Positions 7,473 through 44,550 of a stretch of 64,000 nucleotides of DNA are shown in pieces (the stretch's first letter is position 1; each line of letters begins with the position of its first letter). The translations under genes were made by a program, and so were the position numbers. This DNA is from Candidatus Omnitrophota bacterium (GTDB lineage Bacteria; Omnitrophota; Omnitrophia; Omnitrophales; Aquincolibacteriaceae), in the NCBI GenBank assembly GCA_016930235.1, contig JAFGHI010000047.1, positions 86,215-150,214 on the forward strand, written 5' to 3'. Under the pieces are notes generated by a model. It was given only the letters and a program-made list of their open reading frames with translations, was not told the DNA's origin and did no database searches.

Positions 7473-7483
7473 GATAGATCAAA

Positions 7484-7513
7484 TTCCAAAAACTTGACCC
7501 TGTACGCTCTTCC
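7484..7513 (+). promoter_or_regulatory. sigma70-like promoter for mutY (TTGACC - 18 nt - TATGAT); short or leaderless 5' UTR
   Basis: cTTGACCctgtacgctcttcccccTTATGATaaaccATG read directly; -10 ends about 15 nt before the ATG at 7529. Confidence 0.45.
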
Positions 7514-7528
7514 CCCTTATGATAAACC

Positions 7529-12640: not shown

Positions 12641-13828
12641 TCATCGGCGAAAGCCCTTCACAATGTCACACACGGCAGAAACGACATCGTAAGCATCCTC
12701 GTCTGTCATCTTGGGGTATAGTGGCAATGAAATCATCCGTTGATATTCCTCATAAACCACAGGAAAGTCTTCTGGTTTAAACCCATAATTATTCCGATAA
12801 TAGGGATGCAAATGAATGGGAACGTAATGAACGCTGCTTCCGATATTCCTGCCCCGCAGCTCTTGAATAAATTGATCCCTCGAAAGAGAAAGTCGCTCCA
12901 AATTCAAGCGCAGGATATACAAGTGCCAGGCATGATCGACCCCTGTTTTTTCAGTCGGAATTTCAATTTCTCCAAGCTGAGAAAACGCCTGATGATAAAT
13001 TTTAACAATCTGTCTTCGGCGATCCATAAATTGAGGAAGTTTTCGCATTTGATGGATCCCGATCGCTGCTTGAAGGTCCATCATATTGTACTTAAACCCG
13101 GAAGCAATAACTTCATAATACCAGCTCCCTGTCTCAGAATAACGGTCCCAGGCATCGCGATCAATCCCGTGAAGGCTGTAAACTCTCGCTTTTTCAACCA
13201 AATCCCGACTCCCGGTTAACATCCCGCCTTCTCCGGTCGTCATATTTTTGGTAGCGTAAAAACTGAAGGCCGTCAAATCACCTATCGCTCCGATCATACG
13301 TCCATTGAATTTGGCTGGAATAGCATGAGCTGCATCTTCTAAGACGAACAACTGATACCGCTTGGCTAAATCCATAATTAAGTCCATATCACAAGGATGT
13401 CCAGCAAAATGGACAGGAAGAATTGCTTTAACTTTTTTATCTCTTGTTTTCCTAAGATTTTCTTCGATCTTGAAAGGGTCAATATTGAGAGTATCGCGCT
13501 GGATATCGACTAAAAGAGGAGTTGCACCCACCTGCTCGATTACGTGAACTCCTGAACAAAACGTCATGGGAGTCGTTATCACAACATCCCCTTGACCAAT
13601 TCCCATAGCTGCCAATGCAGTATGAAGCGCCCCGGTCCCGGAACTTAACCCCAACGCAGCTTGAGCTCCAACCAAACGGGCAAATTCTCCCTCAAATTTT
13701 TTAGTCCTCGGTCCGGTTGTGATCCAGTCGGATCGAAGAGTCTCGATCATTTCGATGATTTCCTCTTCCCCTAAAAGCGGAGGGGAAAAAGGCAGGAACG
13801 TTTGTCTTGGCTTCGTCTGGCCGCTCAT
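12641..13828 (-). CDS. DegT/DnrJ/EryC1/StrS-family PLP aminotransferase (PglE/WecE-like UDP-4-keto-6-deoxy-sugar aminotransferase)
   Basis: LPFSPPLLGEEEI...DWITTGPRTKKFEGEFARLVGA; SFYATKNMTTGEGG (PLP lysine region). Confidence 0.9.
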   Translation of the reverse strand: MSGQTKPRQTFLPFSPPLLGEEEIIEMIETLRSDWITTGPRTKKFEGEFARLVGAQAALGLSSGTGALHTALAAMGIGQGDVVITTPMTFCSGVHVIEQVGATPLLVDIQRDTLNIDPFKIEENLRKTRDKKVKAILPVHFAGHPCDMDLIMDLAKRYQLFVLEDAAHAIPAKFNGRMIGAIGDLTAFSFYATKNMTTGEGGMLTGSRDLVEKARVYSLHGIDRDAWDRYSETGSWYYEVIASGFKYNMMDLQAAIGIHQMRKLPQFMDRRRQIVKIYHQAFSQLGEIEIPTEKTGVDHAWHLYILRLNLERLSLSRDQFIQELRGRNIGSSVHYVPIHLHPYYRNNYGFKPEDFPVVYEEYQRMISLPLYPKMTDEDAYDVVSAVCDIVKGFRR

Positions 13829-14550
13829 TTTTTCTCCGGCAGTTGTTTGATAAAATAATACTTGAACAATGTCAGAACCGCAAAAAGAAAGTCTTTAGCC
13901 TTGATCTTTTTACCTTCCTTCGAGGTCCTGCCTTCATAAGAGATAGGCAGCTCCATAATCCGAATACCCTTCTTAGCTAAGAGCGCAGTCACTTCGGGCT
14001 CGAATGAAAAACGATTTGCCTTAAGGGCGAGATGTTTGACAATATCAGCTCTAAAGACCTTGTAGCAAGTCTCCATATCGGTCAATGGAAGTTTAAACAA
14101 TAAATTAGTCAGAAATGTCAAAAAACGGTTTGCCATCCAATTAGGCCAAGCCATTCCTTTGGGATAACAGCATCCGAGAAAACGGCTCCCATAAACGACG
14201 TCGGCTTCACCCTTTAAGATAGGGTCCAATAATTTTGGTATCTCCGACGGCTTATATTCAGTATCGGCATCTTGGATAACAATCAGTTCCCCATGCGCTT
14301 GGCGAATTCCCTTCCGGATCGAATAGCCTTTCCCGCGATTAATTCTATTTTTAAATAAACGGATATTATTGTCCTCGTGCCTATTCTTTAATCTGATCAT
14401 CGTTTCCTTTTCATAGGTTCTATCAATGGAGGCATCATCGACGATAATGATCTCATGCGCAATAGGATATTTGACCGATTGCACATAATGGATAAGCTGT
14501 GCAATGGTATTATGCTCATTATACGTAGGGATAATGATTGACAATTTCAT
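13825..14550 (-). CDS. glycosyltransferase family 2 (polyprenyl-phosphate sugar synthase-like)
   Basis: MKLSIIIPTYNEHNTIAQL...IIIVDDASIDRT...VIQDADTEY (DXD). Start taken at the internal ATG, which forms an ATGA overlap with the upstream gene; the ORF-track start is 14652. Confidence 0.85.
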   Translation of the reverse strand: MKLSIIIPTYNEHNTIAQLIHYVQSVKYPIAHEIIIVDDASIDRTYEKETMIRLKNRHEDNNIRLFKNRINRGKGYSIRKGIRQAHGELIVIQDADTEYKPSEIPKLLDPILKGEADVVYGSRFLGCCYPKGMAWPNWMANRFLTFLTNLLFKLPLTDMETCYKVFRADIVKHLALKANRFSFEPEVTALLAKKGIRIMELPISYEGRTSKEGKKIKAKDFLFAVLTLFKYYFIKQLPEKK

Positions 14551-15257
14551 CCTCGTTCCGGCTCCCACCGAATAAGCCCGACATAATGTGAATTCATGAA
14601 CGGTATTCTCGATAAGACCCTGCATACTCCCAAGAATTTGGGCGCTAACCATCTCGCAAGAAAGGGGATCAAAGTTGCCTTTTTTAGGATAACTTTAGCT
14701 CCCGGAAATAATTTTCGGATCTCGCTTCCAGTAATCCCTTTAACGTTTCTATTCTTTGGGTTGTCGTATCGGAAATCATACCACAAAATAACGCCATTCT
14801 CTTTTAATACACGCCTCATTTCGTGAGCAATTTTTTGTTTTAAACGAGGATCTAAAATCGATGTAAACATCGTTGATTGCAAAACCACGTCGAAAAACTT
14901 ATCCGGCCAGGGTAAATTTTCGGCGTTCCCAGGGGATAAATTCGCATTTGGCAATACGGCCTTGGCTTTCTCAATAAGATGCGTCTCTAAATCAAGACCG
15001 TAAAGATTTTTCTGAGGGACATCCCAATTTGAAAAATCCTCGAGCCAAATGCCGGATCCACACCCCACTTCCAGGATTTTTTTGTTTTCTAATGGCAAAA
15101 TTTTCGCCACCTTAAGGAGCTCCAACATTTTCTCTTTTCTTTGATCATACATCAATCGATTTCCGGGCTGTTTTAAGGAGTAGAATGCAACGGGAATTTC
15201 CCTGGCCCGGCGATCGTATTCTTTCTTGATCCTTTCGATTTCCTTATTCTCGGTCAT
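14547..15257 (-). CDS. class I SAM-dependent methyltransferase
   Basis: ILEVGCGSGIWLEDF (motif I), downstream acidic motif II. Confidence 0.8.
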   Translation of the reverse strand: MTENKEIERIKKEYDRRAREIPVAFYSLKQPGNRLMYDQRKEKMLELLKVAKILPLENKKILEVGCGSGIWLEDFSNWDVPQKNLYGLDLETHLIEKAKAVLPNANLSPGNAENLPWPDKFFDVVLQSTMFTSILDPRLKQKIAHEMRRVLKENGVILWYDFRYDNPKNRNVKGITGSEIRKLFPGAKVILKKATLIPFLARWLAPKFLGVCRVLSRIPFMNSHYVGLIRWEPERG

Positions 15258-16319: not shown

Positions 16320-17428
16320 GCACCGAAGGGAAGTTGACGTGTTGGATAAGGAAATGAAAAATTATCATAGACCCTCTTGAAGTTTCGATCTCTTAATCCC
16401 GTCAAAAATATTTTCAGCAACGAAAAGACATCCGTAACTGCTATGTCTTGAATGCATTTCAAATGGTAAGGGCAATCGTCTGGAAATCCAGTTACGAATT
16501 GGTAACAAGGGCAGCACGAATAATTTGATTGAATGATCATCACGTGGTCTCCCAAAGCAGCTGTTCTCTCCGGAACCGTGTAGGCATACAAAATACATGT
16601 AGGGATCCCTATAATAGCCGCAAGATGGCAAAGGGCGGAATCCACCCCAATAAAAAGATTAACCTGCTTTAATTCCTCAATGACTTCGCTCCAAGGCAAG
16701 CCAATTTTCTGCTGTGCTTGGACCGGCAACATATCCGAAATCTTTTTTATCTCTTCCCTTTCCGAACACGCACCGAAAATACTAATTTCAAGTGAAAAAG
16801 ATTCCCCGAATCGTCGGATGAGCCCTTGAAAGTTCTCGGGCGCCCAACACTTGGAACGACAGTGGGAAGTTGCGTGGATACCTATTTTGAGCTTCCCCCC
16901 CTCCCCCCGGCAAACATCAGCCCCTAGATTGACTTTCTCCTTCAAGGCCAAAATCGCTTTTTGTACCTCTTCATCCAAGAGACCTGTTAACTTTTGATTC
17001 GATACCAAGTCATGATCTTTCTCATCCCAAAAGGGCATCTCCTTATCTCGAAAAGAAAGGAGCCTCATACTCTTGGAAGAACGCCAACCTTTTTTCTCTT
17101 TGGCACAGGCCAATCGAAGAAGGGCATTTCCCCGTCGCCCGGCAGGGCAAACAGCATAAGCAGAGTCATAGGAAAAGCGCCTGAAAGATGACGCCAACCT
17201 TAAAAGATTTTGCAACCACGACTTTTTTTCATGCCATAGAAAAATGCGGTCTGCGGCTTGGAAATAACTCGTCACTTCTTGAGACCCATTGTCCGACACG
17301 ACAACATCGATCTGCATTCCCCGTGCTTGATAAGCCAGAAAAACGGGCAATGCCAAAATGGTGTTTCCCACACCTTCGACGCTGATGAAAAGAATACGTT
17401 TCTTGTCTGATTTTTCTAATGGATTCAT
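16283..17428 (-). CDS. glycosyltransferase family 9 (heptosyltransferase-like) with Cys-rich C-terminal tail
   Basis: ILFISVEGVGNTILALPVF, GVDSALCHLAAIIGIPTCILY (GT9 donor-binding region). Tail CCPCYQFVTGFPDDCPYHLKC. Start set at the internal ATG (ATGA overlap); the ORF-track start is 17473. Confidence 0.65.
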   Translation of the reverse strand: MNPLEKSDKKRILFISVEGVGNTILALPVFLAYQARGMQIDVVVSDNGSQEVTSYFQAADRIFLWHEKKSWLQNLLRLASSFRRFSYDSAYAVCPAGRRGNALLRLACAKEKKGWRSSKSMRLLSFRDKEMPFWDEKDHDLVSNQKLTGLLDEEVQKAILALKEKVNLGADVCRGEGGKLKIGIHATSHCRSKCWAPENFQGLIRRFGESFSLEISIFGACSEREEIKKISDMLPVQAQQKIGLPWSEVIEELKQVNLFIGVDSALCHLAAIIGIPTCILYAYTVPERTAALGDHVMIIQSNYSCCPCYQFVTGFPDDCPYHLKCIQDIAVTDVFSLLKIFLTGLRDRNFKRVYDNFSFPYPTRQLPFGACVVSVPGQGVS

Positions 17429-18651
17429 TTTAGTTGACGGTGTGTGAACCCGCCAGCTTCCTCGAAAAGGCATACGTGCTCATAGACAAACCTTTCTCTA
17501 TTAAAAAGGTGCTGTAACCGAAGCCGGCCTGCTTCTCCCATTTGTTTCCTAATTTCTGGATGATCGACAAAAAATGTTATTGCTTCGGAAAGCTTATGAA
17601 TATCCCCCGCTGGGACTAAAAGCCCGGTTTTGTTATCCTCAATAATCTCAGGAGCGCCTCCTAATTTTGTCGCAATAAGGGCTTTTTCCATTGCCATCGC
17701 CTCAAAAAGAACCCGAGGACTTGGATCCGGCAAAATGGACGGAAGGACACACAAATCCATACTCGCAATGCACTCGGGAACATCTTTTCGAAATCCCGTA
17801 AAAATCACATCGTTTTGTATCCCCAATCGAGAGACGAGTTTCCTGAGTTCTTGCTCATAGCCTCTATCTTCAAAAATAGCGCCTCCGACAACCATAAATT
17901 TAACATTCGGATTCCTCTTTCTTAAGCTGGCTGCGGCTTGAAGAAATTCTCGGTGCCCCTTCCATGCTGCCAACCGACTAAAAATTCCAACCACAATATT
18001 CTCTGCCGATATTGAAAATTCATCCCGTAATCGCGGCGCTACCCGATTAACATTAAATATTTCAAGGTCCGCCGTATTGTATATCACCTTAACCTTCTCG
18101 ATAAATTCATCCCCTGGGAACATCGCGTCTTTAACGGCCTTTGACGGGACAATAATTTTATATGGAATAATCTTTGCCATCTGCCGTAAAAATCTGATGA
18201 CCCAGCCAAAAAAGAGATTCGGTTTTACAATGTCATCAAAGTGCCATAAACAGCCAACGTCGGAAATTTTAGAGGCCAGACCTCCATACAGATGAGCAAA
18301 CATACCATTTGTCATAACAGCATGGATTTTAAAACGTCGGAACACTCCTCCTAATTTAAAGGCCATCAGAAAAACGATAAAGATATCTATGAAAACAGCG
18401 AAAGGATTAAAAATCTGAATTCGCCCTATTCTTGAGCTCGTTGACATTAACGAGGGCATGCGAACGATTTCGACTGAAACACCTAGGCGCTTTAAAGCCT
18501 CGGTTAAGGGCCCTTCAGTGGGGCAAATGACGATCACCTCAAAGTGTGATCGGTCTATGGATTTCTGTAAATCGATATTGTTGAGCTGGGCTCCTCCTAA
18601 AGAGGAGGTTTCCTCGATGAAGGCAAGTCTTATTTTGTTTTCTTCTTCCAT
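17425..18651 (-). CDS. glycosyltransferase family 4
   Basis: GGAQLNNIDLQKSI..., C-terminal EAMAMEKALIATKLGGAPEIIEDNKTGLLV (GT4 E-x7-E region). Confidence 0.85.
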   Translation of the reverse strand: MEEENKIRLAFIEETSSLGGAQLNNIDLQKSIDRSHFEVIVICPTEGPLTEALKRLGVSVEIVRMPSLMSTSSRIGRIQIFNPFAVFIDIFIVFLMAFKLGGVFRRFKIHAVMTNGMFAHLYGGLASKISDVGCLWHFDDIVKPNLFFGWVIRFLRQMAKIIPYKIIVPSKAVKDAMFPGDEFIEKVKVIYNTADLEIFNVNRVAPRLRDEFSISAENIVVGIFSRLAAWKGHREFLQAAASLRKRNPNVKFMVVGGAIFEDRGYEQELRKLVSRLGIQNDVIFTGFRKDVPECIASMDLCVLPSILPDPSPRVLFEAMAMEKALIATKLGGAPEIIEDNKTGLLVPAGDIHKLSEAITFFVDHPEIRKQMGEAGRLRLQHLFNRERFVYEHVCLFEEAGGFTHRQLK

Positions 18652-19409
18652 TCAGTTTCCCACAACAAAACATACTTCAAAAAAACATATAAAGCCACAA
18701 GATGAGCATAGAAAAATCCATGCAATCCATCCCTGAATCCAGCTTTTAAAAAATATCGGTCAAGAAAAACAACGAAGGGCTTGATCACAATATCAATCCA
18801 ACAAAATTTTCGCCCGGCTTTTAAGAGTTCTCCGCATTCATACCGCATATATCTTTCATACTTGAAGAGGTAGGAACTTATTCCTTTAAAATCATTATGG
18901 ATAAAATGTGTTTCCATTCTCTTGACTCTCCCAGGGACAATGAGTCTTGCGTGGACCTCTTTTGTCTGGAATTTCCCCTTATCTCTCCTGAATAAACGAA
19001 CATGATAGTCTGGGTAAAGCCCTCCGTAACGCAGCCATTTGCCATAAAAAAGATTTTTGAACCGGAACTCATAAGCATCCACATCCTGTCCCTGGCACTT
19101 TAGAGCTTCCCGAATTTCTTTTTCACCTCCGAGGTCTAATACTTCATCCGTATCAACCTGCAATACCCATTCATATTCGCATTGGGGGATCGCCCTATTT
19201 TTTTGCGCCGCTGAATTGATGTAAGGATGCTGCAAGATACGATCTGTATATTCGCGGCAGATTTCCAATGTTTTGTCCGTACTAAACGAATCGACAACCA
19301 GAATTTCATCCGCCCATTTGATCGATTCCAAAGTTTCACGGATAGTCCCCTCAGCATTATAGCAAGGCAAAAGAACTGTTATTTTTATGTCCTGCCTTTC
19401 CTGTTTCAT
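18630..19409 (-). CDS. glycosyltransferase family 2 (LPS-core-type)
   Basis: KITVLLPCYNAEGTIRETLESI...ILVVDSFSTDKTLEI...LQVDTDEV. Confidence 0.8.
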   Translation of the reverse strand: MKQERQDIKITVLLPCYNAEGTIRETLESIKWADEILVVDSFSTDKTLEICREYTDRILQHPYINSAAQKNRAIPQCEYEWVLQVDTDEVLDLGGEKEIREALKCQGQDVDAYEFRFKNLFYGKWLRYGGLYPDYHVRLFRRDKGKFQTKEVHARLIVPGRVKRMETHFIHNDFKGISSYLFKYERYMRYECGELLKAGRKFCWIDIVIKPFVVFLDRYFLKAGFRDGLHGFFYAHLVALYVFLKYVLLWETEWKKKTK

Positions 19410-20194
19410 GTCTTCGCCTTTAAGAATTTTTCGGCAAGCGCCTTCATAGCATATTCCAGATCATAAGCTCCGCTCACTTTCCGTTGAAATACATCCAAAC
19501 CATCGCTTCCCAGTACCTTATCGCGATTAAGAAGATAAGGATTAGCATGATAACTATTCCCTCTAAACCCACCTACCCTAACAGCACATTGATAACCACT
19601 CTCTTCTACTGTCTTCAGCTCACGTTTACCGTAAAGCCCGCCGGGATAAGCAAAAGATTTGACCTCAACATTCAAATGGTTTTCAATAATTTTTTTGGAA
19701 CCCCCGATTTCTTCCTCCAAATTCTCATCCGATAATGTTCTTAAATCATTATGATGATTGCTGTGAGCACCTATCTCGGCACCTTCTTGGACTAAAAAAC
19801 GTAAATCTTCCCACGCAAGAAGCGGTTTATCCTGCCCATAACGGCTCCAATCGCTCACTCCCCCGATCTTCTTTGCAACAACAAAAATCGTTGCGGGGAA
19901 ATGATATTGCTCAAGAACCGGCCATGCATTATGCTTAAAATCCAGATACCCATCATCAAACGTAAGACAAAGGGTGTCTTTTAAATCCTCATGCCGAATT
20001 AATCGTTTTACGACTTCCGATAACGGTAAAACCCGGTAATGCGCTTTTGAAAGAATTTCCATTTGTGATTGAAATAATTCGGGCTGTACGGCTAGAGGAT
20101 TTTGGGGCTCTTTTGAAATGCTATGATACATGAGAATCCTAAAATGATTTCTCCCAAACATCTTAGCGAAATTATCAATCATCATGCTTTGCAT
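19406..20194 (-). CDS. polysaccharide deacetylase (NodB-homology, CE4)
   Basis: LCLTFDDGYLDFKHNAWPVLEQYHFPATIFV...GAHSNHHNDL (TFDDG and H-x-x-H motifs). Confidence 0.8.
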   Translation of the reverse strand: MQSMMIDNFAKMFGRNHFRILMYHSISKEPQNPLAVQPELFQSQMEILSKAHYRVLPLSEVVKRLIRHEDLKDTLCLTFDDGYLDFKHNAWPVLEQYHFPATIFVVAKKIGGVSDWSRYGQDKPLLAWEDLRFLVQEGAEIGAHSNHHNDLRTLSDENLEEEIGGSKKIIENHLNVEVKSFAYPGGLYGKRELKTVEESGYQCAVRVGGFRGNSYHANPYLLNRDKVLGSDGLDVFQRKVSGAYDLEYAMKALAEKFLKAKT

Positions 20195-20209: not shown

Positions 20210-21706
20210 CTAAATTTTTGTTCCCGGAGTTATCTTTCCAGCCATTTTATAAATCTCAAAAGCCGCTCTTTTTTCGGCAAGAACAACGCTAGCATAAAAA
20301 TAAGCCAAGGCCATCATGGCCCAAAAAGGCGCATATTGCTCCGGCAGATTAAAAAACGGTTGCACAGTTAAAATGGCCAACGCAGCAACTGTGCTCCCCA
20401 CAAAACCGCAAAAATACTCGCGCAGCATACGCGACTTCGTCTTCCTATATTGGGACCATAATCGCCGAACGTTCGATAAAAATAAACTTAAATAAGCAAG
20501 CATTCCAAATATCCCGACATCAGCCCAAATCTGTAAAATATCACTATGCACCAAACCGCTGGAACCCCATCCATTACCTAAAATAGGGCTGTTCTGAACT
20601 ACTGACCATGCATATTTTGCTCTCGCCTCCCTTTCTTTAGCGCTTGAATCCTGTTTCTCTCCATAAATGGTATGCATTCTATCTTTCGCAACTTGCGGTG
20701 CTAAATAATACAAACACATAAGACCAATGACCGCCATGACAAAAAAACGTATCCCTTTGACCGAAAAATATGCCACAAAAGAAATCACGGAAGGAACCCA
20801 AACTCCTCGATGCCCTGAGATATAGATGGCACCCGCCGTAAAGATAAAAGACAAAAACAAAAAGAACCGATGTGTGTTTGTTCTGGAATTTCTAAGTTCG
20901 GCGAAAATTAAGGGGAACCAAATCGCGAGAAATCCAGCCAGCATCGCATTCCCCCAAAAGGCTGCCCCCGCTCTTTTAAATCCTTCCTCTCCTATTGTTG
21001 TTACCTCTTGCAGATAACCACCAAAAATTTTAACATATCCAAGCCCCATATATTCGCTAATCGAAAGAATCGACAAAAAAAGACAAACGGTAGCCATAAT
21101 GGTCAATATATTTTGGACATGACTAACCTCATGAACCATCCTTCTCACGACAATGTAACAAGGGATCGCTATCCACATCATTTTGGCATAAAATAATGAC
21201 TGGTTAATTTCATCGGGCGTTGAATCGACATACCAACCATTCAACACCGCCCATGCAGAAGACAGTGCCAGGATATAAACTGCCTTGGGAATCTTCGCAC
21301 GAGTCGACTTTACCGGCAAACGAACAAATAAGGCAACAATGGCTAACGCCACAACCAATATTTCACAAGGAACAACTCTGAAATATTTTCCAAAAAACAT
21401 TGTCCTTTGGCCTATGGAGAAAGTAATGAAAAGATAGTACATGATAAAAAGATACGCCTTCCGCGTCCCCATCGCGTAAGCAAAAATAGGCGGCACAATA
21501 ATAATGGCCGCAAAAACAGCCTGGCCCTTAAATGAAAAACTAGCCATCATGAGCCCAACAAATAAAAATATCCCGATAAAATATTGGATTGTCCTGACAG
21601 CTTCTTTTGTTGAGCTCAGCTGACTGACAAGTATTTCACGCATTGTGCGTCGAACTCTAACTTTCGGGGCAATCTGGAATCCCGGCGGTGGAATATTTTC
21701 TGTCAT
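20210..21706 (-). CDS. O-antigen ligase / Wzy_C-family polytopic membrane protein (WaaL-like ligase, O-antigen polymerase or PglL-type O-oligosaccharyltransferase)
   Basis: More than 10 TM helices with a large periplasmic loop carrying ...RGVWVPSV...HNGWGSSGLVHSDILQIWADVGIFG, typical of the Wzy_C domain. Confidence 0.65.
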   Translation of the reverse strand: MTENIPPPGFQIAPKVRVRRTMREILVSQLSSTKEAVRTIQYFIGIFLFVGLMMASFSFKGQAVFAAIIIVPPIFAYAMGTRKAYLFIMYYLFITFSIGQRTMFFGKYFRVVPCEILVVALAIVALFVRLPVKSTRAKIPKAVYILALSSAWAVLNGWYVDSTPDEINQSLFYAKMMWIAIPCYIVVRRMVHEVSHVQNILTIMATVCLFLSILSISEYMGLGYVKIFGGYLQEVTTIGEEGFKRAGAAFWGNAMLAGFLAIWFPLIFAELRNSRTNTHRFFLFLSFIFTAGAIYISGHRGVWVPSVISFVAYFSVKGIRFFVMAVIGLMCLYYLAPQVAKDRMHTIYGEKQDSSAKEREARAKYAWSVVQNSPILGNGWGSSGLVHSDILQIWADVGIFGMLAYLSLFLSNVRRLWSQYRKTKSRMLREYFCGFVGSTVAALAILTVQPFFNLPEQYAPFWAMMALAYFYASVVLAEKRAAFEIYKMAGKITPGTKI

Positions 21707-21721: not shown

Positions 21722-22588
21722 CTATCCATAAAGAAAAAACCCAAAAAGGATTAGCCAAAGAATGAATGTCCCAATCATCCCTTTATCTCGCAAGAAAATC
21801 CTGATAGGGTCTTCTCCCTTATTTTTTTCAATAACTAAAAACAAATACCGCATGACACCATAAATCACAAAGGGCACCGTAAAATAAAGTTTGTTGCCTG
21901 AATAATAGATTGCTTGTTCAGAAACAGTATACAGTATGTAGGTAAGAATTGCGGCCGAAGACATGATGACTAAACACAAATCCAAATAAGGTACGCTATA
22001 GCTTGATAATACCTTCCGTTGTTTGTTTGCTTTCTTCTGCATCAGCACAAGTTCGCTGCGTCTTTTACCAAACCCAACAAACATGGCCAATAATCCTGTA
22101 CAAATAATGACCCAATGAGAAAGAGCAACCTCCACCACAAGGGCCCCCGCTAGCAGTCGGAATATATAAAAAAGGCTGAAGCAAACAACATCAACGATGA
22201 CAACCTGTTTGAGATAACAAGAATAAAGCCAGTTAATAATAATCACAAAAATCATTAAAATACCTAATTGCACATTGATACAAAAAGCAAAGAAGAGAGA
22301 AATCAACGCGAGGATGAGAACCGCCGCCCAACCTTTACGGAAAGACAACTGACCGGATGCAATGGGTCTTAGTTTTTTAATGGGGTGAAGCCTATCATTC
22401 TCGTAATCTAAGATATCATTGAAAATATAAACAGCGCCCATCATCGCCGTGTAAGTCAAAAAGACCAAAATAGAGCTGATTGCGAGATCTATCCTAAGAA
22501 GACGTAAACCGAAAACAAGCGGGACAAAAACAACAATATTTTTCACCCACTGCCTTGGTCTCATGCTAAGCAATATGGCTTGTATCAT
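21722..22588 (-). CDS. UbiA-family prenyltransferase, decaprenyl-phosphate 5-phosphoribosyltransferase-like (polyprenyl-P + PRPP)
   Basis: RPRQWVKNIVVFVPLVFG; YIFNDILDYENDRLHP (NDxxDxxxD); second Asp-rich motif; 8-9 TM helices; 288 aa. Confidence 0.7.
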   Translation of the reverse strand: MIQAILLSMRPRQWVKNIVVFVPLVFGLRLLRIDLAISSILVFLTYTAMMGAVYIFNDILDYENDRLHPIKKLRPIASGQLSFRKGWAAVLILALISLFFAFCINVQLGILMIFVIIINWLYSCYLKQVVIVDVVCFSLFYIFRLLAGALVVEVALSHWVIICTGLLAMFVGFGKRRSELVLMQKKANKQRKVLSSYSVPYLDLCLVIMSSAAILTYILYTVSEQAIYYSGNKLYFTVPFVIYGVMRYLFLVIEKNKGEDPIRIFLRDKGMIGTFILWLILFGFFLYG

Positions 22589-22839
22589 TTTATCCTTTGA
22601 CTAAAGCTTGAAAAAGACGACCCCATAACTTCTAAATATATTTTCCACGCTGATTCTTGATGCCCAACCGCCGACAGATGAATCCCGTCACAAAAAAATT
22701 CCTCTACTCTATTATTTAGTATCGGCTCCAAATCTAAAATCGACACCCCATCTCGTCGACATAAAACCTTAACAGAGTTCATAGCGCAGATCTCTAACAT
22801 ATTTGATATAAAGCAGTTAACGCAATTCTTGCTTTGCAC
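22585..22839 (-). pseudogene. possible remnant of an SGNH/GDSL hydrolase C-terminus (84-codon ORF) between a methyltransferase and the UbiA gene
   Basis: FFCDGIHLSAVGHQ resembles SGNH block V (DGxHxxxxG). No block I Ser-containing N-terminal part. A 93-codon signal-peptide-like ORF (22817..23098) overlaps the methyltransferase 3' end in another frame. Confidence 0.25.
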
Positions 22840-23690: not shown

Positions 23691-24847
23691 TATGATCTCG
23701 CGATAATCTCTTTGAACAACGATTCATATTCCTCGATAGTTTTTTTATAGCTATAGCATTGTTCAACGGCTTCTCTCGTCTTGATATAAGCAGAAGGATT
23801 ATGAACAATCCGCTCAACAGCTTGGGCAAGCATTAGAGGGTTATCGCATTGAACCACCTCTCCCATTCCTGTAACCCGGACGGCTTCACGCCCTCCAGGG
23901 ATATTGTTCACAATCACCGGGGTTCCACATAACATGGCCTCGACTTGAACAAGCCCCAAGCATTCCGTTTCGCTTGGAAGAACAAGCACGTCACAAGCAG
24001 AATAGAAATCCGCAACATCTTGCTCATTAAGAAGCATTCCCAAAAAAAGAATATCCTTCTCATGCTTCTCGATTAATTCTTTGCATCTTTCGAAGTAATT
24101 TTCGTAAAAGAGTTTGTGTGACCCAGCAAACACAAGCTTAACGGGGCCAATTCTTTCTTTGATCAGAGGAATCGCGCGGATGAGTCGATCCGGCCTCTTC
24201 TCTTCAACAAAACGTCCAGCATAACCCAGGATTATCTGCCCCTCTGCCCCCCACTTCTTTTTTAATCTGACTTTAGCATCCGAGCTTGGAACAGGAATCA
24301 CTGCTGGAGGATAAATCTTAACCGTCTTATTTTGAACGCGCCGCAAAAAACGAGACTGTTCAATATAGTCATGACTATATCCTGTAATTTTTCTTGCGAA
24401 TCGAGCTGCCAAAAAAGAAAGCCAATAAACGGCAGGTTCGACAAACAAACTAACGATTTTATCCTTCGGGAGCGTTAAATCGCCATGATGAGTAATAACA
24501 AATGGCTTACGCATAATTCGGCAAATGGGCGCTGTCCATATCATTTCAAGCGAAGGGCTATGGAGACTTACAGCATCGGCCCATTTAAGCCATGAAAATA
24601 CCTTGAAAAAGAAAGAAGGCGCAATAACACCGCGACTAATCCGAAAAAGAGGTTTGAAACGAATAATCCGCACTCCATCAACCCATTCCTCTTTTGGCTT
24701 CGCACGATCATGCCAGGCTGCCAATACAATCACCTCATGCCCCTTCTGCGCCATGCCACGTGCCATCCGTTCAATATGAAGAGTCATTCCCGTTCGGTGA
24801 GGCAAATAATAAGTCGTGATAATCAATAATTTCATAGGATACCCCAA
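23690..24847 (-). CDS. glycosyltransferase family 4
   Basis: MKLLIITTYYLPHRTGMTLHIERMARGMAQKGHEV...; C-terminal VEAMLCGTPVIVNNIPGGREAV. Confidence 0.85.
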   Translation of the reverse strand: MGYPMKLLIITTYYLPHRTGMTLHIERMARGMAQKGHEVIVLAAWHDRAKPKEEWVDGVRIIRFKPLFRISRGVIAPSFFFKVFSWLKWADAVSLHSPSLEMIWTAPICRIMRKPFVITHHGDLTLPKDKIVSLFVEPAVYWLSFLAARFARKITGYSHDYIEQSRFLRRVQNKTVKIYPPAVIPVPSSDAKVRLKKKWGAEGQIILGYAGRFVEEKRPDRLIRAIPLIKERIGPVKLVFAGSHKLFYENYFERCKELIEKHEKDILFLGMLLNEQDVADFYSACDVLVLPSETECLGLVQVEAMLCGTPVIVNNIPGGREAVRVTGMGEVVQCDNPLMLAQAVERIVHNPSAYIKTREAVEQCYSYKKTIEEYESLFKEIIARS

Positions 24848-26829
24848 ACTCGAAGTTCAACGCCGGGCTCAAACACCTCGAATTCGATTGATTCAATTTT
24901 AACTTCATCCTCCAAACCGTATTCGTAACTATAAATTTTAGCTTCGAAATCGCGCCAGCTTCCCGAGTAGGCTCTTTTCCCGGCCATATGAATTCTCTTT
25001 CTCCAGGAAAATACGGGCTCCGCGGTTTTACCCTTCCGCAATAAATCTTCTTCCATCCAGGAATGGGTTTCCTCCCCCTTAACAATGGGTAGATCCAAAC
25101 GCCCCTCTTTTGAAATAATTCTAATCCGTCCAATCATGACACCATCCGGAATACTCACCGACCCCGTAAGATTCGAAAGAAGGGTAAGATGTTTCGTTGA
25201 AAAATCGTTTTGATAATGAACCTTCTTGATTAATTCGTCGGTGATTGTCAGCGGACCGAGAATCTCAATTTCTTGCCCTTGAACCGACAAGTTGAATGGA
25301 AAATCTAGATCCATAAATTCCATACCCAACAATTCTTGCGGCAAAGGTTTCTGAATCGAAGGGGGCGCCGAATCATTATTTTTTTCATAGATCAACGCGG
25401 TCAAAGGCGGACGGACGATTTTCCTTTTTAAGGTGTATTCATTCTCGACATTCCGTAAAATATTATTTAATTCCTGATGCATCTCTTTTCTGAAATCAAA
25501 GAAAACCAATAATATCCTCGATAAATCTTCCTCTTGTTTCTCAATATTTAATAAATCCCAAGCCGAATGCATATTTTGAAAATCAGAAAAGTAATATCGG
25601 AAATATGGTTCCGCCCGCCCGCCGTAAAATACAGGCAAATCGGTTGTTTCATTTTCCAGAAAAACTTCCATATCATGCCACGATACGCGTTTGCCCGAAA
25701 AGGACCAGTCGCCCTTGAAGTAGCAGAACGAGGCGCCCAGATTAATGAGGATGAGCGCGGTTGAAAATACCAGTGCCCACCTACCTGAAAAACGGCTCAC
25801 TCCAAAACAAAGCGCAAGATAATACACCGGTAATAAAAAGAGAAGGTATCGAAATTGAACACCTGTGGTTTTGGGCGCAAAAGAGTCAAGCCCCAGGACA
25901 ATAAATATGAGAGTAAAAAAGGAAACACCCATAATGGCCTTTAATAATCGATTCTCCTTCATCCTTTGTATAGCGATGAAAAGGAGAACCGCATGGATTG
26001 AAAAAGCAGGAATAACAAGGAACCACAGCATGGGATAAACCGAATTACCGAGCACAAACTGATAAATCGTTATCGCAAGCTTCCCTAGATTAACAATCCC
26101 AAATCCCCTTGACTCGATATATCCGTGAACAGTTACCGCATGAGCATAATGCTGAAGCATATCATGGGCTTTTTCACGAAAAACATAAGCAAACACCAAA
26201 AGGATAAAGACCCCTAATCCGCAAATAATAATCTTCCATAAGCGCCGACGCTTCGAAAGAAAAAATAAGACAAGAAACTGAATGGCCACCAAAAATATCC
26301 CGAAACCATGAGACAAAATACAGAAGATGTCAGCGACACCCCACAAAAGACCTGCTCGAAGACTGCGTTGGAAGTAAAAATACGCAAAGGCCAACCAAGC
26401 AAATGTCGAATTCATCAAAAAGAAACTATAAAATCTTAGAGATTGTGAATGATAAAGAGCCAAGGGAGAAGTCGCAAGAAGGAGCCCGAGCAAAAACCCC
26501 ATTCTTGCATTGATCAAAAGGGAACCCAACATATAGATCAAACAACATGCAAATGCTCCAAAAAGAACAGAAGCAAATCGAAGCCATATCTCCGACGTTC
26601 CAAAAAAAGTCCAAACCTTCATGAACAAAAAATACAGTAAAGAATGGATATTCAATCCGAAGTATTTAATCTCTTCGACCGTATGGAATTCATCTCCGGA
26701 CAAAGTGCAGCGATTTAACCCGACAAGGCGAAATGCCAGAGAGAAAACAAAGAGACCGGCAAAAACAAAAAATAAATTTGTCCTGTTTATCCCCCAGCCC
26801 ACAGAGCTTAATGGAGACCGTAATTTCAT
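24832..26829 (-). CDS. GT-C fold membrane glycosyltransferase (ArnT/PMT, GT39/83-like) with C-terminal periplasmic domain
   Basis: About 12 TM helices; first-loop SGDEFHT (DE motif of GT-C enzymes); about 270-aa soluble C-terminal domain. Start set at the ATG giving an ATGA overlap with the upstream gene; the ORF-track start is 26907. Confidence 0.6.
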   Translation of the reverse strand: MKLRSPLSSVGWGINRTNLFFVFAGLFVFSLAFRLVGLNRCTLSGDEFHTVEEIKYFGLNIHSLLYFLFMKVWTFFGTSEIWLRFASVLFGAFACCLIYMLGSLLINARMGFLLGLLLATSPLALYHSQSLRFYSFFLMNSTFAWLAFAYFYFQRSLRAGLLWGVADIFCILSHGFGIFLVAIQFLVLFFLSKRRRLWKIIICGLGVFILLVFAYVFREKAHDMLQHYAHAVTVHGYIESRGFGIVNLGKLAITIYQFVLGNSVYPMLWFLVIPAFSIHAVLLFIAIQRMKENRLLKAIMGVSFFTLIFIVLGLDSFAPKTTGVQFRYLLFLLPVYYLALCFGVSRFSGRWALVFSTALILINLGASFCYFKGDWSFSGKRVSWHDMEVFLENETTDLPVFYGGRAEPYFRYYFSDFQNMHSAWDLLNIEKQEEDLSRILLVFFDFRKEMHQELNNILRNVENEYTLKRKIVRPPLTALIYEKNNDSAPPSIQKPLPQELLGMEFMDLDFPFNLSVQGQEIEILGPLTITDELIKKVHYQNDFSTKHLTLLSNLTGSVSIPDGVMIGRIRIISKEGRLDLPIVKGEETHSWMEEDLLRKGKTAEPVFSWRKRIHMAGKRAYSGSWRDFEAKIYSYEYGLEDEVKIESIEFEVFEPGVELRVWGIL

Positions 26830-28106
26830 GGCCGCCGTTGACCCTTTAAACGATTTGGCTTTGGCCTCTCTTTGCAGAAACGACTGCGAAAAAAACAGGA
26901 CAGCCAAAAAAGAGCGACAACGATATATGGAAAGATATAAGGTTTAAACGGAGCTAAGTAACGGGGTTCGACATGAAAAGGAATATGTAAAACGGTCATA
27001 TAAATAAAGGAAAACCAAAAAACGGACAAATCCTTTCCCTGTTTGCGGGTAAGAAATAAACCGACAATGAAAAACACCAATAAAGCCGAATCAAAAATAA
27101 CGACCGTCTCGCGCACGGCCGGCCCAGACCGGCTTGGATAACTTATCCACAGCCGGAGCACTCTCACCCCACAGCCCTTGAGATACTCAAGAGGACTCTC
27201 CGTAATACGACTTAAGGTTTCCCGAATATAAAGCGCTTCCAAATCGAGCGAAGGATCTTGTTGATAGGCCGTTTCTAATTTGCGATGGATCTCGTCAAGT
27301 TCGCGTCTTCTCGGATCTTCCGGATCATCCAACCAAAACCCCCAATGCCATAAATCATACTTCTGATCGACTGTCGCAAGAATCAAATTATGTCCCATAT
27401 TCCCTTTTGACAAAGGAATCCATTCGCGAAAGATTAGATAATTGCGAACCGTCCAAGGAGCGAGAACTATAACCATGGACATCACGAGCAAAACTGTGCC
27501 CCAAAACCATTCTTTCCCGCGTATCCCCTGCCAAAACAAATGCATAAGGATGACAGCCGGGAACAACAGCATGATGGGTTTACATAAAACAAGAAGCCCC
27601 AGGGAAAAACCGGTTGCGGTCAAAAAGAACTTTCTGCGGGTTTTGCCATACTGGATCCAGAACAACACCATGAGGGCTGTCAAAAAGATGCTCAAAATCT
27701 CCGTCAAAATACCCGAGGCATAATAGGCCAATGGAAAATAAAGCGCTAAACCAAGACTTGCCCCCAAGCTCACCTTCTCATCAAAAAAATGACGGGTAAT
27801 ATAAAACAATAAAACGCAACACCCTGAAAATATGAACGATTGAAAAATCAAAACGATCATAGGTTGATGCCCAAAAAAGAAATACAAAACGCCCAGGAAA
27901 AGAGGGTAAAGCGGCGGCTTGAGAATTAAAGGGCCTTTAGGCCCTACCAATCCTTTTCCATTTGCGAAATTCCACGCAAAGGTATCATACCAAGAACCGT
28001 CGGCACTCAAAGGCTGCCGATAATGAAAAACATAAATAAACATCAAGGCATGGAGGAGCGCTATGAACGCAATCGCAATAAGTATCATGTTTCTCTTACT
28101 CAGCAT
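26826..28106 (-). CDS. GT-C fold membrane glycosyltransferase (ArnT-like)
   Basis: FANGKGLVGPKGPLILKPPLYPLFLGVLYFFFG (KPPL signature region of ArnT/GT83-type enzymes), 10+ TM helices. Confidence 0.55.
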   Translation of the reverse strand: MLSKRNMILIAIAFIALLHALMFIYVFHYRQPLSADGSWYDTFAWNFANGKGLVGPKGPLILKPPLYPLFLGVLYFFFGHQPMIVLIFQSFIFSGCCVLLFYITRHFFDEKVSLGASLGLALYFPLAYYASGILTEILSIFLTALMVLFWIQYGKTRRKFFLTATGFSLGLLVLCKPIMLLFPAVILMHLFWQGIRGKEWFWGTVLLVMSMVIVLAPWTVRNYLIFREWIPLSKGNMGHNLILATVDQKYDLWHWGFWLDDPEDPRRRELDEIHRKLETAYQQDPSLDLEALYIRETLSRITESPLEYLKGCGVRVLRLWISYPSRSGPAVRETVVIFDSALLVFFIVGLFLTRKQGKDLSVFWFSFIYMTVLHIPFHVEPRYLAPFKPYIFPYIVVALFWLSCFFRSRFCKERPKPNRLKGQRRP

Positions 28107-33057: not shown

Positions 33058-36000
33058 CTAAGCATCCGCTTTCGTACAAATATAAATCCAATCTGCTCCT
33101 TTTGTTGAGCCTATCACATAATTATGGGCTTCTACTTTGAACCCCGCCTGTTCAAGACAAAGGAAGAAATCACGGCCGAATTTCATAATCGGTGTTCCTG
33201 TGATCACTTTTCGAGGATCTTTTTTTTCGGTTTTCTGCAATTCTCTATCGCTAAATTCCGAAAGGATCAAAATTCCACCTTTTTTCAAGCACCGATATAA
33301 TTCTTTAATGGCCTTTTCCCAGCCCTCAACGTATTCAAGGACATGGAAACAGATAACGAGATCAAAAGCCTCATCTCGAATACCTAAATGGCATACGTCC
33401 ATAACACTATCTGCCGGTATGAACCCTCGATCAATCGTCACGCAAGAAACTCCTGCCTCCAATAAATATTTCTTCAATCCTAACCAAGGCCCTATATCTA
33501 AACATTTCATCCCCTTTCTTAATAGGCGCCTATCTTCAAATAGCTGGACAAGCCCACGATGCCTTTCCAAACTACGGCATTTTGGACACTGAGCCCCTGG
33601 CCGATAAGCCCAAGGAGAAACAACGGGGAAAAACTCAACCCCCTTCCAACCGCAAATGCTACAAACTTTACCCTTAAAACTTTGGGGGACTATTGCATTC
33701 ACGACCGATAACCCAAATTTGACTAAAAGCCCCTTCGCCCATTGAAGAAACTGTCCGCTTTTGATCCATTGCCGTAATTTCACTATAAAATTTTTTGTTG
33801 TTCGCTCATCGCCTAATTTGGAAATCTGACCATAAAATAAATCTATATATTTTTCAGCGATCGTTCCCCAGCAATATTTCTCTTCAACAACGATTCTCCC
33901 GGTTCTCCCCATTTCTTTCCTTAAATTTTGAGAGTTTAAAAGTTTTTTGATGGCTCTGCCGAGTTCTTCAGCATTGGTTTCATCCACCAGGAAACCCGTT
34001 TCCTTTGTCACTAAATCAGGGTAAGGCACATGCCTGGAGACAATCACCGGAAGCTCCATCGCAAAAGCCTCTAAGATCACATTAGGAAATCCCTCGCCTT
34101 TGGACAAAAGGATGAAAATATCCGCCAAGGCATAGTAAGGGAGAATATCTACCCCTTCCGTCACAAAATGAACATGCGAATTAAGATTTAGTTTCTGAAC
34201 TAAACGATGCAACTTTGAATAATAGGGCCCGGCCCCGACTATCCAATACCGAACAGGAATATTCTCATCAACCATTTTCCGGACAGCCCTAATGACATGC
34301 TGGATACCTTTGCGTACCTCAAGAGCCGAAACAGTAAGCAAAACGCATTCGTTTTCATAAATTCCGAACATTTTTCGGATATTGTTTCTATTGTGATCTT
34401 GCGGTTTGAATTTTTGATGATCAATCCCATTAGGAATAACCTGCACCTTCCTTCCAAAAAAGGAGGCAACACCTTGAGCCATCGGACCCGTTTTTACAAC
34501 AATCCCATCAATTGCTTTATCGAACCTTAAAAACTTGAATTTCTTGAACCGGTGCGACGTATGCTCAAAAGGATACCCAACGATAAAATTAATTTTGGTT
34601 TTTTTAATATACCGTAGGATTTTAAGCGGAAGGGCCTCGCCACAATCCGAAAAGTAAATATTGACGGCATCATAATCATTTTTCAGGAACCAATAAAGAT
34701 AGAACGGGATAACAAGAATAGCTTGAAAATACCTGAAACGCGGACTTTTGATTAGTTTCACTTCCGGAGAAACTGCTGTTACGGAACACCCTAGGTCACC
34801 GCTCCATGTATAGAGATCGACCTTGTGTCCGCGCGCCGCCAATTCATTCGCCAAATGAATGCTTGAACGTTCAATCCCTCGAAAATATCGGAACAAAAAC
34901 GGAGAAATGATCGCTATTTTTAAAGGACGTTTCCTTATCCCCTGCCATTCTTCTTTTCCCAAGTCGAAACAATCACGAAAAAGCTTGAGATATTCATTGG
35001 CAATAACACTCCAGGCATATTTTTTAACGGCCTGTTCACGGTTTGCTTTCCCCATTTGCAAACGCTTATCAGAAGAATCAAGAAGGTCGGAAACAACCTG
35101 GCACACTTTACCAATTTCTTCCCGTTTGACATAATGAGCTCCATTCTGAGCAGCCATTTGATTTAGCGGAGGATTGTCTGCAAGCACAAGCGGTAGTCCG
35201 GAAGACATTGCTTCCAACAAAGCTAAAGGTGACCCTTCCCCTTTGGAAAGAAATAAGAAAATATCGGAGGCAAGATAATAATCTGAAGTATTTGTAACCG
35301 CGCCTCCAAACTTAACATGTTTTTCAAGGCGGTGCATTTCAACATGTTTTTTTAACTTTTTGGCCTCCGGGCCATCTCCCAAAACAAGATACAAAACATC
35401 CGGATGACTTTGGCGAACCTGATCAATAACATCAATGCAATAATCTATCCCTTTACGCTTTTCAAATGCGGCAATCGTAAGAATAATTTTCATATCTAAA
35501 GGAAGGCCTAACTTCGCCCTTAAATCTTTTTTGTTCGTATTCTTTGCGAGACAAAACTCCTCGGGATTAACACCGCTTGAAATCACCGGGATTTTCCTGT
35601 TCAGCAAAAACGCCGCCTGCTCAGCGACATAATCGCTGACCCCAACAATGACTTTTGCATGCTTCACTAAAAAACATTTTTCCATCATACGGTAACGGTG
35701 TGGAACTTGTTCGGCAGGATAATGAAGAATCAAACAAGTCGAAGCTAGAAATTCAGGCGCCAATCGAAAAGCAATATTCTCGCCATGCCATGCAAACAAA
35801 ATGCATGTTACATCGGGTCGCAATTTTCTTAAAATAAAAGGATAAATAATGCCTGCGAAAAAGCTGCGGAAATATTTGGGCAAGCAAACAGTATGAAGGT
35901 GCACATTTGTCTCTAACGGTCCCCAAGGCCATGCCTTATTTTCTTTCCACGTAATAATGTGAACATCAACACCTTGTTTTGAAAAAGAATTAGCCACCTC

Positions 36001-40657: not shown

Positions 40658-40691
40658 GAATAATTTTTCTTTATCATTCAAAGAACATGCG

Positions 40692-44493: not shown

Positions 44494-44500
44494 TTCGAAG

Positions 44501-44539: not shown

Positions 44540-44550
44540 TGTCTTGACTC

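Follow-up and report, generated by a model that had tools for sequence, protein, structure and literature searches.

A WaaL-fold glycan ligase predicted in a strain-variable surface-glycan island of an Omnitrophota bacterium

We analyzed a stretch of 64,000 nucleotides from a Candidatus Omnitrophota bacterium (assembly GCA_016930235.1, contig JAFGHI010000047.1, positions 86,215 to 150,214; the whole stretch is called the window, and all coordinates below are counted from its first letter), focusing on the gene at 20210-21706 on the minus strand. A first-pass annotation of this DNA had asked whether the product, a Wzy_C/WaaL-family protein, is a lipopolysaccharide (LPS) ligase or a PglL-like protein O-oligosaccharyltransferase (O-OTase). 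Judging from its sequence, fold and gene neighborhood, the 498-aa protein is very probably an en-bloc ligase, i.e., an enzyme that transfers an exported, finished glycan as a whole. A more specific reading, in which it would serve as O-antigen ligase for a surface-glycan island that is strain-variable and UpxY-controlled, with lipid A-core as the acceptor, is the one that we favor, tentatively. The analysis locates the ligase gene in a glycan island that varies between strains but keeps one chromosomal position, and it delimits an unnamed ligase subfamily along with the partner genes conserved around it.

The ligase and its family

In the list of open reading frames (ORFs), the gene occupies exactly 20210-21706 of the minus strand, with a product of 498 aa. 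The start codon is judged sound because the preceding UbiA-family gene ends in TAG, followed by 15 nt with a purine-rich AGAGAA and then by the ATG. Pfam Wzy_C (PF04932) matches residues 286-406 with 45.1 bits (E 1.2e-11; the gathering cut-off is 31.7 bits), and no other Pfam domain was found even at E<=1, the level down to which the scan was reported. The protein is polytopic, with many hydropathy peaks and an AlphaFold model that consists of transmembrane helices (14 long ones) and short loops throughout; the description in the first-pass annotation, a 498-aa polytopic protein with Wzy_C, is thus confirmed. The identical protein in the database is annotated as 'MAG: O-antigen ligase family protein [Candidatus Omnitrophica bacterium]'. 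The top NCBIfam match is TIGR03097 PEP_O_lig_1 ('putative O-glycosylation ligase, exosortase A-associated'), with 28.2 bits versus a cut-off of 188.1.

Searches of the PDB returned no match at E<=10, either with the single protein (phmmer) or with a four-sequence profile (hmmsearch), and the alignment of a 50-sequence family profile to E. coli WaaL by hhalign had a probability of 0.6%, which is not significant, and served for residue register only. By fold, the sole strong match is to a ligase; no solved structure of the Wzy_C family other than WaaL was among the matches. As in WaaL of Cupriavidus metallidurans (PDB 7tpj) and of E. coli K-12, the predicted active site is a periplasmic Arg/Arg/His set, and the enzyme would act after export of a lipid-linked glycan. 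The two differ in that our protein is 12% identical to WaaL, ~80-95 residues longer and predicted to have 14 helices, has two further near-invariant arginines (R101 and R245), is encoded in a variable island and belongs to a family that reaches the LPS-less Chloroflexota.

In E. coli WaaL, R215, R288 and H338 are functionally important and are shared with PglL (Schulz et al., PMC3643930), in which the counterparts are R224, R298 and H349. These residues sit in TQTRAT, SLGAR and HNEIIEAG of E. coli WaaL, and the putative counterparts in our protein are SGHRGV (R300), SAKER (R359) and HSDILQIW (H387); the hhalign register, from an alignment with an insignificant score, pairs S355/R359 with S284/R288 and H387 with H338. 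The full set of candidate catalytic or donor-binding residues is R101, R245, R300, D353, S355, R359 and H387. Across 132 aligned family members, R300 is kept in all 132, R101 in 130, S355 in 128, R359 in 126, H387 in 125, and both R245 and D353 in 124. Given alternating helices, all seven residues lie on the same non-cytoplasmic face of the membrane; a positive-inside check from DSSP helix ends was uninformative, as the helices extend beyond the membrane. A match to the WaaL motif H[NSQ]X9GXX[GTY] is also found at H387. The protein is, on this evidence, a member of the WaaL-fold superfamily with intact predicted catalytic residues.

It should be noted that the fold and the conserved residues are uninformative on the acceptor, because Wzy_C, with these catalytic His and Arg residues, is common to all known O-OTases (PMC3643930, PMC9829042) and because WaaL is the only solved member that we found. 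Firm clustering with WaaL ligases, which the first-pass annotation had named, together with unglycosylated secreted proteins, as a refuting result, was not seen by sequence (no match to WaaL in the PDB or to that of E. coli); it was seen by fold, trivially, WaaL being the only solved structure of the family among the matches.

A word-index search yielded three close relatives only (35-41% identity), and the next tier of proteins carries DUF5935 together with Wzy_C. An exhaustive profile search yielded 86 cluster representatives at E<=1e-30 and, with the threshold relaxed to E<=1e-10, 376; most are full-length proteins of 440-500 aa. Wzy_C was matched by 48 of 50 aligned members, and PglL_A (E<=0.01), Wzy_C_2 and DUF5935 by none of the 50; weak NCBIfam matches in the same set were to PEP_O_lig_1 (nine members), RfaL (three), IctB (two) and the repeat-unit polymerase model TIGR04370 (one). 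Among the closest known groups is that of TIGR03097, as the best model for our protein and for these nine members and through the DUF5935 plus Wzy_C tier, but the score is 28 bits versus 188, no exosortase gene was found among the window ORFs and DUF5935 is missing from all 50 members. As judged from these matches, the family is an unnamed and very divergent subfamily of a known superfamily. An organism name was attached to only five of about 30 representatives looked up, and the members with a named organism come from Candidatus Omnitrophica (our protein, P0017), a Chloroflexota bacterium (P0039) and an Anaerolineae bacterium (P0043). The Chloroflexota members are 19-21% identical to our protein.

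The operon, the variable island and the proposed pathway

The ligase gene lies in a run of 26-27 genes between 43323 and 8598 (~34.7 kb), all on the minus strand and either overlapping or separated by gaps of <=121 bp, and because of this arrangement we read the run as one operon. The ligase is gene 17 or 18 of it, depending on whether an 84-aa ORF is counted. Promoter-like and terminator-like matches in the operon region were no commoner than in shuffled sequence. The first gene (42694-43323, minus strand) encodes a UpxY-family NusG-like antiterminator (Pfam NusG; NCBIfam antiterm_UpxY 143.8 bits, cut-off 100).

The operon lies between mutY and a gene at 43984, with conserved flanks at 6363-8593 and 43984-51971: radical-SAM and MutY genes on one side, and a TIGR04073-like gene (the 43984 gene) with PRT, SpoU, GDPD, CobO and PepM17 genes on the other. 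In two syntenic loci (L014 and L015), the 43984-type gene has the same place as in the window, with PRT-SpoU-GDPD-CobO on one side and, on the other, a divergent NusG-like gene that heads a glycan locus. The content of this locus is different in each case: NeuB, NeuC-like and NeuA-like (nonulosonic-acid) genes in L014, and Wzm, Wzt (with Wzt_C) and glycosyltransferase (GT) genes in L015. At a third site (L016), just one gene, GCV_T, separates the radical-SAM and MutY genes from the 43984-type gene, and the glycan locus is absent. Because the content differs between L014 and L015 and the site in L016 is empty, we consider the operon a variable island and the 43984 gene a conserved flank. O-antigen loci are typically variable, antiterminator-controlled islands at a fixed site. 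An independent preprint describes an Omnitrophota polysaccharide cassette that is hyper-variable among strains and carries an annotated O-antigen ligase, LPS exporter and heptosyltransferase II.

From the domain, the fold, residue conservation, gene context and synteny, we infer a donor, an order of steps and an acceptor, as follows. PglC/PglF/PglE-like enzymes would prime polyprenyl phosphate with a sugar of the 4-amino-4,6-dideoxy-HexNAc type. The candidates are an 813-aa fusion of an initiating phosphoglycosyltransferase (PGT) with a PglF-like 4,6-dehydratase (Pfam Bac_transf, CoA_binding_3 and Polysacc_synt_2, i.e., PglC+PglF-like; NCBIfam EPS_sugtrans 318 bits, cut-off 295.6), which shares the segment 8598-12616 (minus strand, Pfam assignments) with the last gene of the operon, for a DUF2079 membrane protein, and a DegT aminotransferase from the adjoining segment 12641-17473 (minus strand), which also contains the genes for a GT9 (heptosyltransferase-like), GT2b, a methyltransferase and GT2a (Pfam). 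The fusion and DegT agree with the bacillosamine-type initiating sugar proposed in the first-pass annotation, but the set is incomplete, since the operon contains no PglD-like acetyltransferase; DegT and the next GT2 gene overlap there. A hexapeptide (PglD-like) acyltransferase gene follows DegT or the ligase in L003, L004, L005, L008 and L010, and the only hexapeptide protein of the window (53963-54670), which shares 28-30% identity with the copies in L004 and L005, is encoded outside the operon at a distance of ~10 kb.

The small GT2, GT4 and GT9 enzymes would then add an adaptor, and extension and capping in the cytoplasm would fall to three multi-domain proteins encoded at 33058-40681 (minus strand; Pfam), namely, a GT4+FkbM methyltransferase of 707 aa, a GT4+GT4 protein of 847 aa and a GT4+GT4+methyltransferase of 1002 aa. 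Their assignment as the enzymes that build and cap the chain is by analogy to the WsaE/WbdA design (PMC2943079). The finished, polyprenyl-diphosphate-linked glycan would be moved to the outer face of the inner membrane by an ATP-binding cassette (ABC) exporter of the MsbA/HepA/PglK class (40692-42572, minus strand; Pfam ABC_membrane and ABC_tran), in which the transmembrane and nucleotide-binding domains are fused. It had been called a PglK-like single-polypeptide flippase; it is indeed a single polypeptide, but it is not specific to PglK, as the NCBIfam scores are 509 bits for HepA_fam, 405 for MsbA and 237 for PglK, all under the cut-offs.

The glycan would next be decorated by membrane GTs of type C (GT-C), with polyprenyl-phosphate-sugar donors supplied by a UbiA-type phosphoribosyltransferase and an ArnC/PpgS-like GT2. 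In the last step, the ligase would move the whole chain to its acceptor; R300 and R359 (and R101 and R245) would hold the diphosphate, and catalysis would fall to H387. In a diderm host such as this one, the acceptor would most likely be lipid A-core.

A pathway of this kind is known from Helicobacter pylori, where a PglK-type ABC flippase (Wzk) feeds a true WaaL without Wzx, Wzy or Wzz. The WecA-Wzk-WaaL route and the window share a single-polypeptide flippase of the PglK/MsbA class that hands an Und-PP-linked glycan to a WaaL-type ligase. They differ in that the H. pylori genes are scattered and its primer is WecA/GlcNAc, whereas the window has one operon with a bacillosamine-type primer, GT4/methyltransferase chain builders, GT-C enzymes and an exporter nearer to HepA/MsbA than to PglK.

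The assignment as an en-bloc ligase draws on the exporters of the related loci. Ten further genomic contexts of relatives were read, and the comparison of cassette genes covers seven related loci. No Wzx-like or Wzz-like protein was found among the window ORFs of >=150 aa, as the first-pass annotation had noted, and neither Wzx nor Wzz was found in 10 contexts (the window, L001-L005, L008, L010, L011 and L012), three of which have ABC exporters instead. The exporter varies by locus: L001 has ABC2_membrane and ABC_tran genes next to the cassette, and L003 a GT2-ABC2_membrane fusion with an ABC ATPase that carries a sub-threshold Wzt_C domain. Wzm/Wzt pathways finish their chains in the cytoplasm, and a Wzy_C protein beside Wzm/Wzt, as in L001 and L003, would for that reason act as a ligase and not as a polymerase. 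Because its relatives often occur with Wzm/Wzt and never with Wzx or Wzz, our protein, too, is more probably an en-bloc ligase than a polymerase.

Several genes form a cassette around the ligase. GT4a was found in all seven related loci; the ligase-adjacent GT2c (37-53% identity), GT4c (30-45% identity) and DegT were each found in six of the seven; GT2d is 47-59% identical in four and 27% identical in two more; GT2b and a methyltransferase occur in most, and several have a hexapeptide acyltransferase. The ligase has its most constant partners, across phyla, in GT2c and GT4a, and GT2d and GT4c also belong to the cassette found around it. L004 contains nearly the whole downstream half of the window operon, including GT9, PMT_2 and the 813-aa PGT-dehydratase fusion. 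The context of one distant member (L012) is unrelated, with beta-helix proteins and transposases.

The GT-C genes of the window (24832-28106, minus strand) encode a PMT_2 protein of 426 aa (31.3 bits) and a protein of 691 aa with transmembrane peaks. PMT_2-type or 691-aa-type GT-C genes are present in the window and in seven of eight related loci (L002, L003, L004, L005, L008, L010 and L011; not L001). In Chloroflexota, an 889-aa protein (P0039, TAK34801.1; 10001-12670 in L008, and also in L009) joins an N-terminal PMT_2 half to a C-terminal Wzy_C half within a similar cassette, and in L011, a PMT_2 gene overlaps the start of the ligase gene, followed by a gene for a 667-aa GT-C-like membrane protein. 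This fusion and this overlap suggest that the ligase and a GT-C enzyme work together.

Lipid A-core and other candidate acceptors

Lipid A-core is the favored acceptor, since Omnitrophota are a diderm phylum. The PVC group, to which Omnitrophica are assigned, is described as firmly diderm and is counted among the diderm-LPS lineages, and Omnitrophota encode RcpA outer-membrane secretins. Further support comes from the behavior of the locus, which is that of a variable O-antigen island, from the H. pylori precedent, from the GT9 gene in the operon and in L004 and from a TonB-dependent receptor in the syntenic L014. This receptor (Plug and beta-barrel) is encoded at 13938-20507 of L014 with FecCD, ABC and periplasmic-binding genes, by CobO and CbiA; by its gene content, the set is a BtuB-type cobalamin uptake system and direct gene-level evidence of an outer membrane in the lineage. 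The first-pass annotation had taken the GT9 heptosyltransferase-like gene as support for WaaL; the GT9 domain is present (Pfam 65.8 bits), but the best NCBIfam match, heptosyltransferase II, scores far below its cut-off (56.8 versus 134.6 bits).

A number of observations weigh against a lipid A-core acceptor. LPS in this host is something that we infer from the placement of the phylum only: no lpx, kds, waaA or lpt gene was found in the 64-kb window or in 10 related loci, and the Omnitrophota and Omnitrophica literature examined contains no statement on lpx or lipid A. Besides the low score of GT9, the GTs that flank the ligase match no LPS-core model, and LgtF/WaaE/WaaG-like functions, considered for them, were rejected for want of NCBIfam support. 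A further point is the place of the ligase gene, which is within the variable glycan island and not with core genes. The similarity of the protein to real WaaL is undetectable by sequence (phmmer, hmmsearch; hhalign <1%), the NCBIfam RfaL model does not match it at all, and even PEP_O_lig_1 reaches only 28 bits. Finally, Chloroflexota, described as 'all devoid of lipopolysaccharides', contain the ligase family, and their cassette (P0039, P0043) includes the hexapeptide acyltransferase, GT2c, GT4a, GT4c, DegT, PMT_2 and a PglC-like transferase. Of the LPS-ligase alternative put forward earlier, a ligase-type Wzy_C/WaaL-fold member downstream of an ABC exporter is upheld; WaaL itself is not detectable by sequence, and lipid A-core stays a predicted acceptor.

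Given the Chloroflexota relatives, it is conceivable, if doubtful, that the family (~380 clusters at E<=1e-10, in Omnitrophota and LPS-less Chloroflexota) represents a new class of en-bloc transferase with a PMT_2-type partner, which would move an ABC-exported, bacillosamine-primed polysaccharide to a protein or a GT-C-primed acceptor, and not to lipid A. This would mean S-layer-type or 'general' O-glycosylation in uncultured nanobacteria, with TIGR04073-like proteins, which have Ala/Pro/Ser-rich linkers, as possible substrates.

The protein version of such an acceptor is rather unlikely. The enzyme would then be a protein O-OTase of a class distinct from PglL, PglS, TfpO and TfpM and functionally like WsaB and WsfB, and would transfer the ABC-exported, methyl-capped chain from polyprenyl diphosphate to Ser, Thr or Tyr of secreted or surface proteins. 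Apart from the Wzy_C domain and the His and Arg residues, this is favored by the bacillosamine-type primer genes, which are typical of pgl systems, by the best NCBIfam match, weak as it is, to a 'putative O-glycosylation ligase', and by the presence of family and cassette in LPS-less Chloroflexota, but these relatives are 19-21% identical and may differ in acceptor specificity. In H. pylori, the WecA/Wzk/WaaL route is needed for LPS and for adhesin glycosylation, so that one role does not have to preclude the other.

Neisseria PglL uses bacillosamine-primed donors. Membership in the PglL family, which the first-pass annotation had entertained, is not borne out. PglL_A (PF15864), a model built to separate PglL from WaaL (PMC3643930), and Wzy_C_2 are absent from our protein and from the 50 members, and at 498 aa, compared to 620 aa for PglL and 548 aa for PglS (PMC9829042), the protein has no large C-terminal periplasmic or TPR domain. 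The location inside a polysaccharide locus is a further argument against PglL (Schulz et al., PMC3643930). The likeness to PglL, PglS, TfpO (PilO) and TfpM is in Wzy_C and the shared catalytic residues; TfpO/PilO and TfpM are encoded right after their cognate pilin, whereas our gene is flanked by the UbiA-family gene upstream and a polysaccharide deacetylase gene downstream, and the window contains no pilin gene.

A parallel in favor of a protein acceptor is the S-layer route of Geobacillus and Paenibacillus, with a PGT primer, multi-domain GT+methyltransferase proteins, an ABC exporter and a Wzy_C protein in the cluster (PMC2943079). WsaB of G. stearothermophilus and WsfB of P. alvei are Wzy_C proteins in ABC-dependent glycan clusters with a GT+methyltransferase terminator, and they are predicted to transfer a completed chain (PMC2943079). 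This is a likeness of pathway design, not of sequence, and there are differences: the hosts are monoderm Firmicutes, the S-layer acceptor is encoded nearby and there is a TPR motif or partner, whereas in the window, no S-layer (SLH) gene was recognized and no TPR partner was seen adjacent to the ligase, the TPR proteins at 2471-4475 being outside the operon.

Two secreted proteins, at 43984 and 47742, had been put forward as acceptors with Ser-rich tails. The tail is real in the first, a secreted TIGR04073-like protein (43984-44493, plus strand; 36.8 bits for TIGR04073, with a cut-off of 50) that has a low-complexity linker rich in Ser and, at the C-terminus, HDPxxYVKK: Ser and Thr make up 17 of 30 tail residues, and it is the only real gene of the window with such a tail. 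The second (47742-48206, minus strand) has a signal peptide and no low-complexity tail, with 7% Ser. The family of the first comprises 386 proteins, several of them labeled TIGR04073 by JGI, and all members with a named phylum are from Candidatus Omnitrophica. They share a layout of ~160 aa, with a signal peptide, a conserved domain of ~95 aa, a variable, disordered low-complexity linker (median 38 aa; pooled composition Ala 20%, Pro 18%, Glu 13.5%, Ser 8% and Thr 5.5%) and the strictly conserved HDPxxYVKK, possibly a sorting or anchoring signal. The copy in the window is an outlier, with 37% Ser in its linker; only three of 120 family members (P0162-P0281) reach 15 Ser+Thr per 30 residues.

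A secreted protein with a disordered Ala/Pro/Ser/Thr-rich linker is encoded beside the start of the operon in three of four genomes examined, which favors a protein acceptor; conserved synteny (L014-L016) explains this adjacency, and the gene is 22 kb away from that of the ligase. As a dedicated, co-inherited acceptor, the 43984 protein was rejected at the level of locus association, being absent from the seven related ligase loci and present beside differing glycan loci and, in L016, at an empty site. With one tail missing and the other protein encoded in a conserved flank, the earlier acceptor argument is weakened, and a role of the 43984 protein as acceptor is speculative. The 47742 protein holds a KRGLVNALTLPAEIP motif that resembles the TIGR04073 core, with no match to the TIGR04073 model; together with a second small secreted protein (48280-48744, minus strand), it is encoded beside CobO, and small ORFs are found at the same position in L014-L016.

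An acceptor that is neither lipid A nor a peptide is improbable. The ligase and its GT-C partner would form a unit, and the polymer would be transferred to a sugar that a PMT_2-type enzyme places on a protein, glycolipid or cell-wall polymer, or else to a glycolipid anchor built by GT2c and GT4a. WaaL chemistry naturally takes a sugar hydroxyl as acceptor, and the PMT_2-Wzy_C fusion, the overlap in L011 with its following 667-aa gene, the GT-C genes in the window and in seven of eight related loci and the constancy of GT2c and GT4a across phyla all agree with such a unit. On the other side, this is evidence of context only, the fusion was found in one representative, and the GT-C genes are more simply explained as enzymes that decorate side chains; we know of no precedent for a primed-acceptor mechanism.

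Least probable is a Wzy-type polymerase that joins polyprenyl-diphosphate-linked units after ABC flipping: many Wzy polymerases match Pfam Wzy_C, one of the 50 members weakly matches TIGR04370, and a PglK/Wzk-type exporter could in principle replace Wzx, but Wzx and Wzz/PCP are missing from the 10 contexts, two orthologues lie beside Wzm/Wzt (one with a weak Wzt_C), which export completed chains, the multi-domain GT+methyltransferase proteins indicate polymerization and capping in the cytoplasm, and the only strong fold match is a ligase.

Omnitrophota are ultra-small and probably predatory or parasitic, and their cell surface is, to our knowledge, uncharted by experiment; surface glycans likely govern their contact with hosts and phages. 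If the acceptor is lipid A-core, as we favor, the protein would simply be the O-antigen ligase of the phylum. If the acceptor is a protein or GT-C-primed, the family would be a new class of O-linking transferase, and such enzymes are sought for glycoconjugate production, since they are able to move whole polysaccharides. The Chloroflexota relatives and the GT-C fusion leave room for such a non-lipid acceptor.

Other genes of the operon and the window

Directly upstream of the ligase, at 21722-22588 (minus strand), is the gene for a UbiA-family polyprenyl-phosphate phosphoribosyltransferase of the DPPR-synthase type (Pfam UbiA 73.8 bits). The protein passes the NCBIfam equivalog NF008977 (decaprenyl-phosphate phosphoribosyltransferase) with 246.3 bits (cut-off 234), and the gene was found in none of the seven related loci compared. 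In mycobacteria, this enzyme catalyzes the first step of the arabinan-donor pathway. Because no DprE1/DprE2-like epimerase was found in the window, the sugar of the lipid-linked donor may be ribose and not arabinose.

Further upstream, the segment 22585-24847 (minus strand) contains GT4b, a methyltransferase (both by Pfam) and the 84-aa ORF (22585-22839, minus strand), which is called as a gene, has no Pfam match and fills the gap between the methyltransferase and UbiA genes. It contains DGIHLSAVGH, which resembles the last conserved block of SGNH/GDSL hydrolases, and is probably what is left of the C-terminal part of an SGNH hydrolase gene; it would mark a rearrangement that brought in the UbiA gene. 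The 691-aa GT-C protein has at least eight transmembrane helices and a C-terminal domain, with no Pfam match; proteins of L004, L005, L008 and L010 share 27-37% identity with it over 340-675 aa, and those of L008 and L010 carry PMT/PMT_2 matches. A role as a PglB/STT3-type N-oligosaccharyltransferase was rejected for it, there being no STT3 Pfam match and no WWD motif, and the protein being PMT_2-like instead. Between the GT-C genes and those of the multi-domain enzymes, the segment 28096-33024 (minus strand; Pfam) encodes a methyltransferase, GT4d, GT2d, GT4c and another methyltransferase.

The polysaccharide deacetylase, GT2c and GT4a are encoded directly downstream of the ligase (17425-20194, minus strand; Pfam, with no NCBIfam model at cut-off). 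GT2a resembles polyprenyl-phosphate-sugar synthases, its best NCBIfam matches being AglJ, PpgS and ArnC, all sub-threshold. Together, GT2a (13825-14652), the cytoplasmic deacetylase (19406-20194) and PMT_2 (26826-28106), all on the minus strand, resemble the Arn, Lgm and PpgS-Rv3779 logic, in which a free amino sugar is added outside the cytoplasm; the matches here are all sub-threshold, and L011 also has a formyltransferase.

At the far end of the window, a giant ORF (54989-63976, minus strand) runs off the end of the stretch and encodes at least 2995 aa, with methyltransferase, HEAT, TPR and Glu/Leu/Phe/Val-dehydrogenase-like domains and no Ser/Thr-rich stretch anywhere in it. Its size is consistent with the giant genes reported for Omnitrophota.

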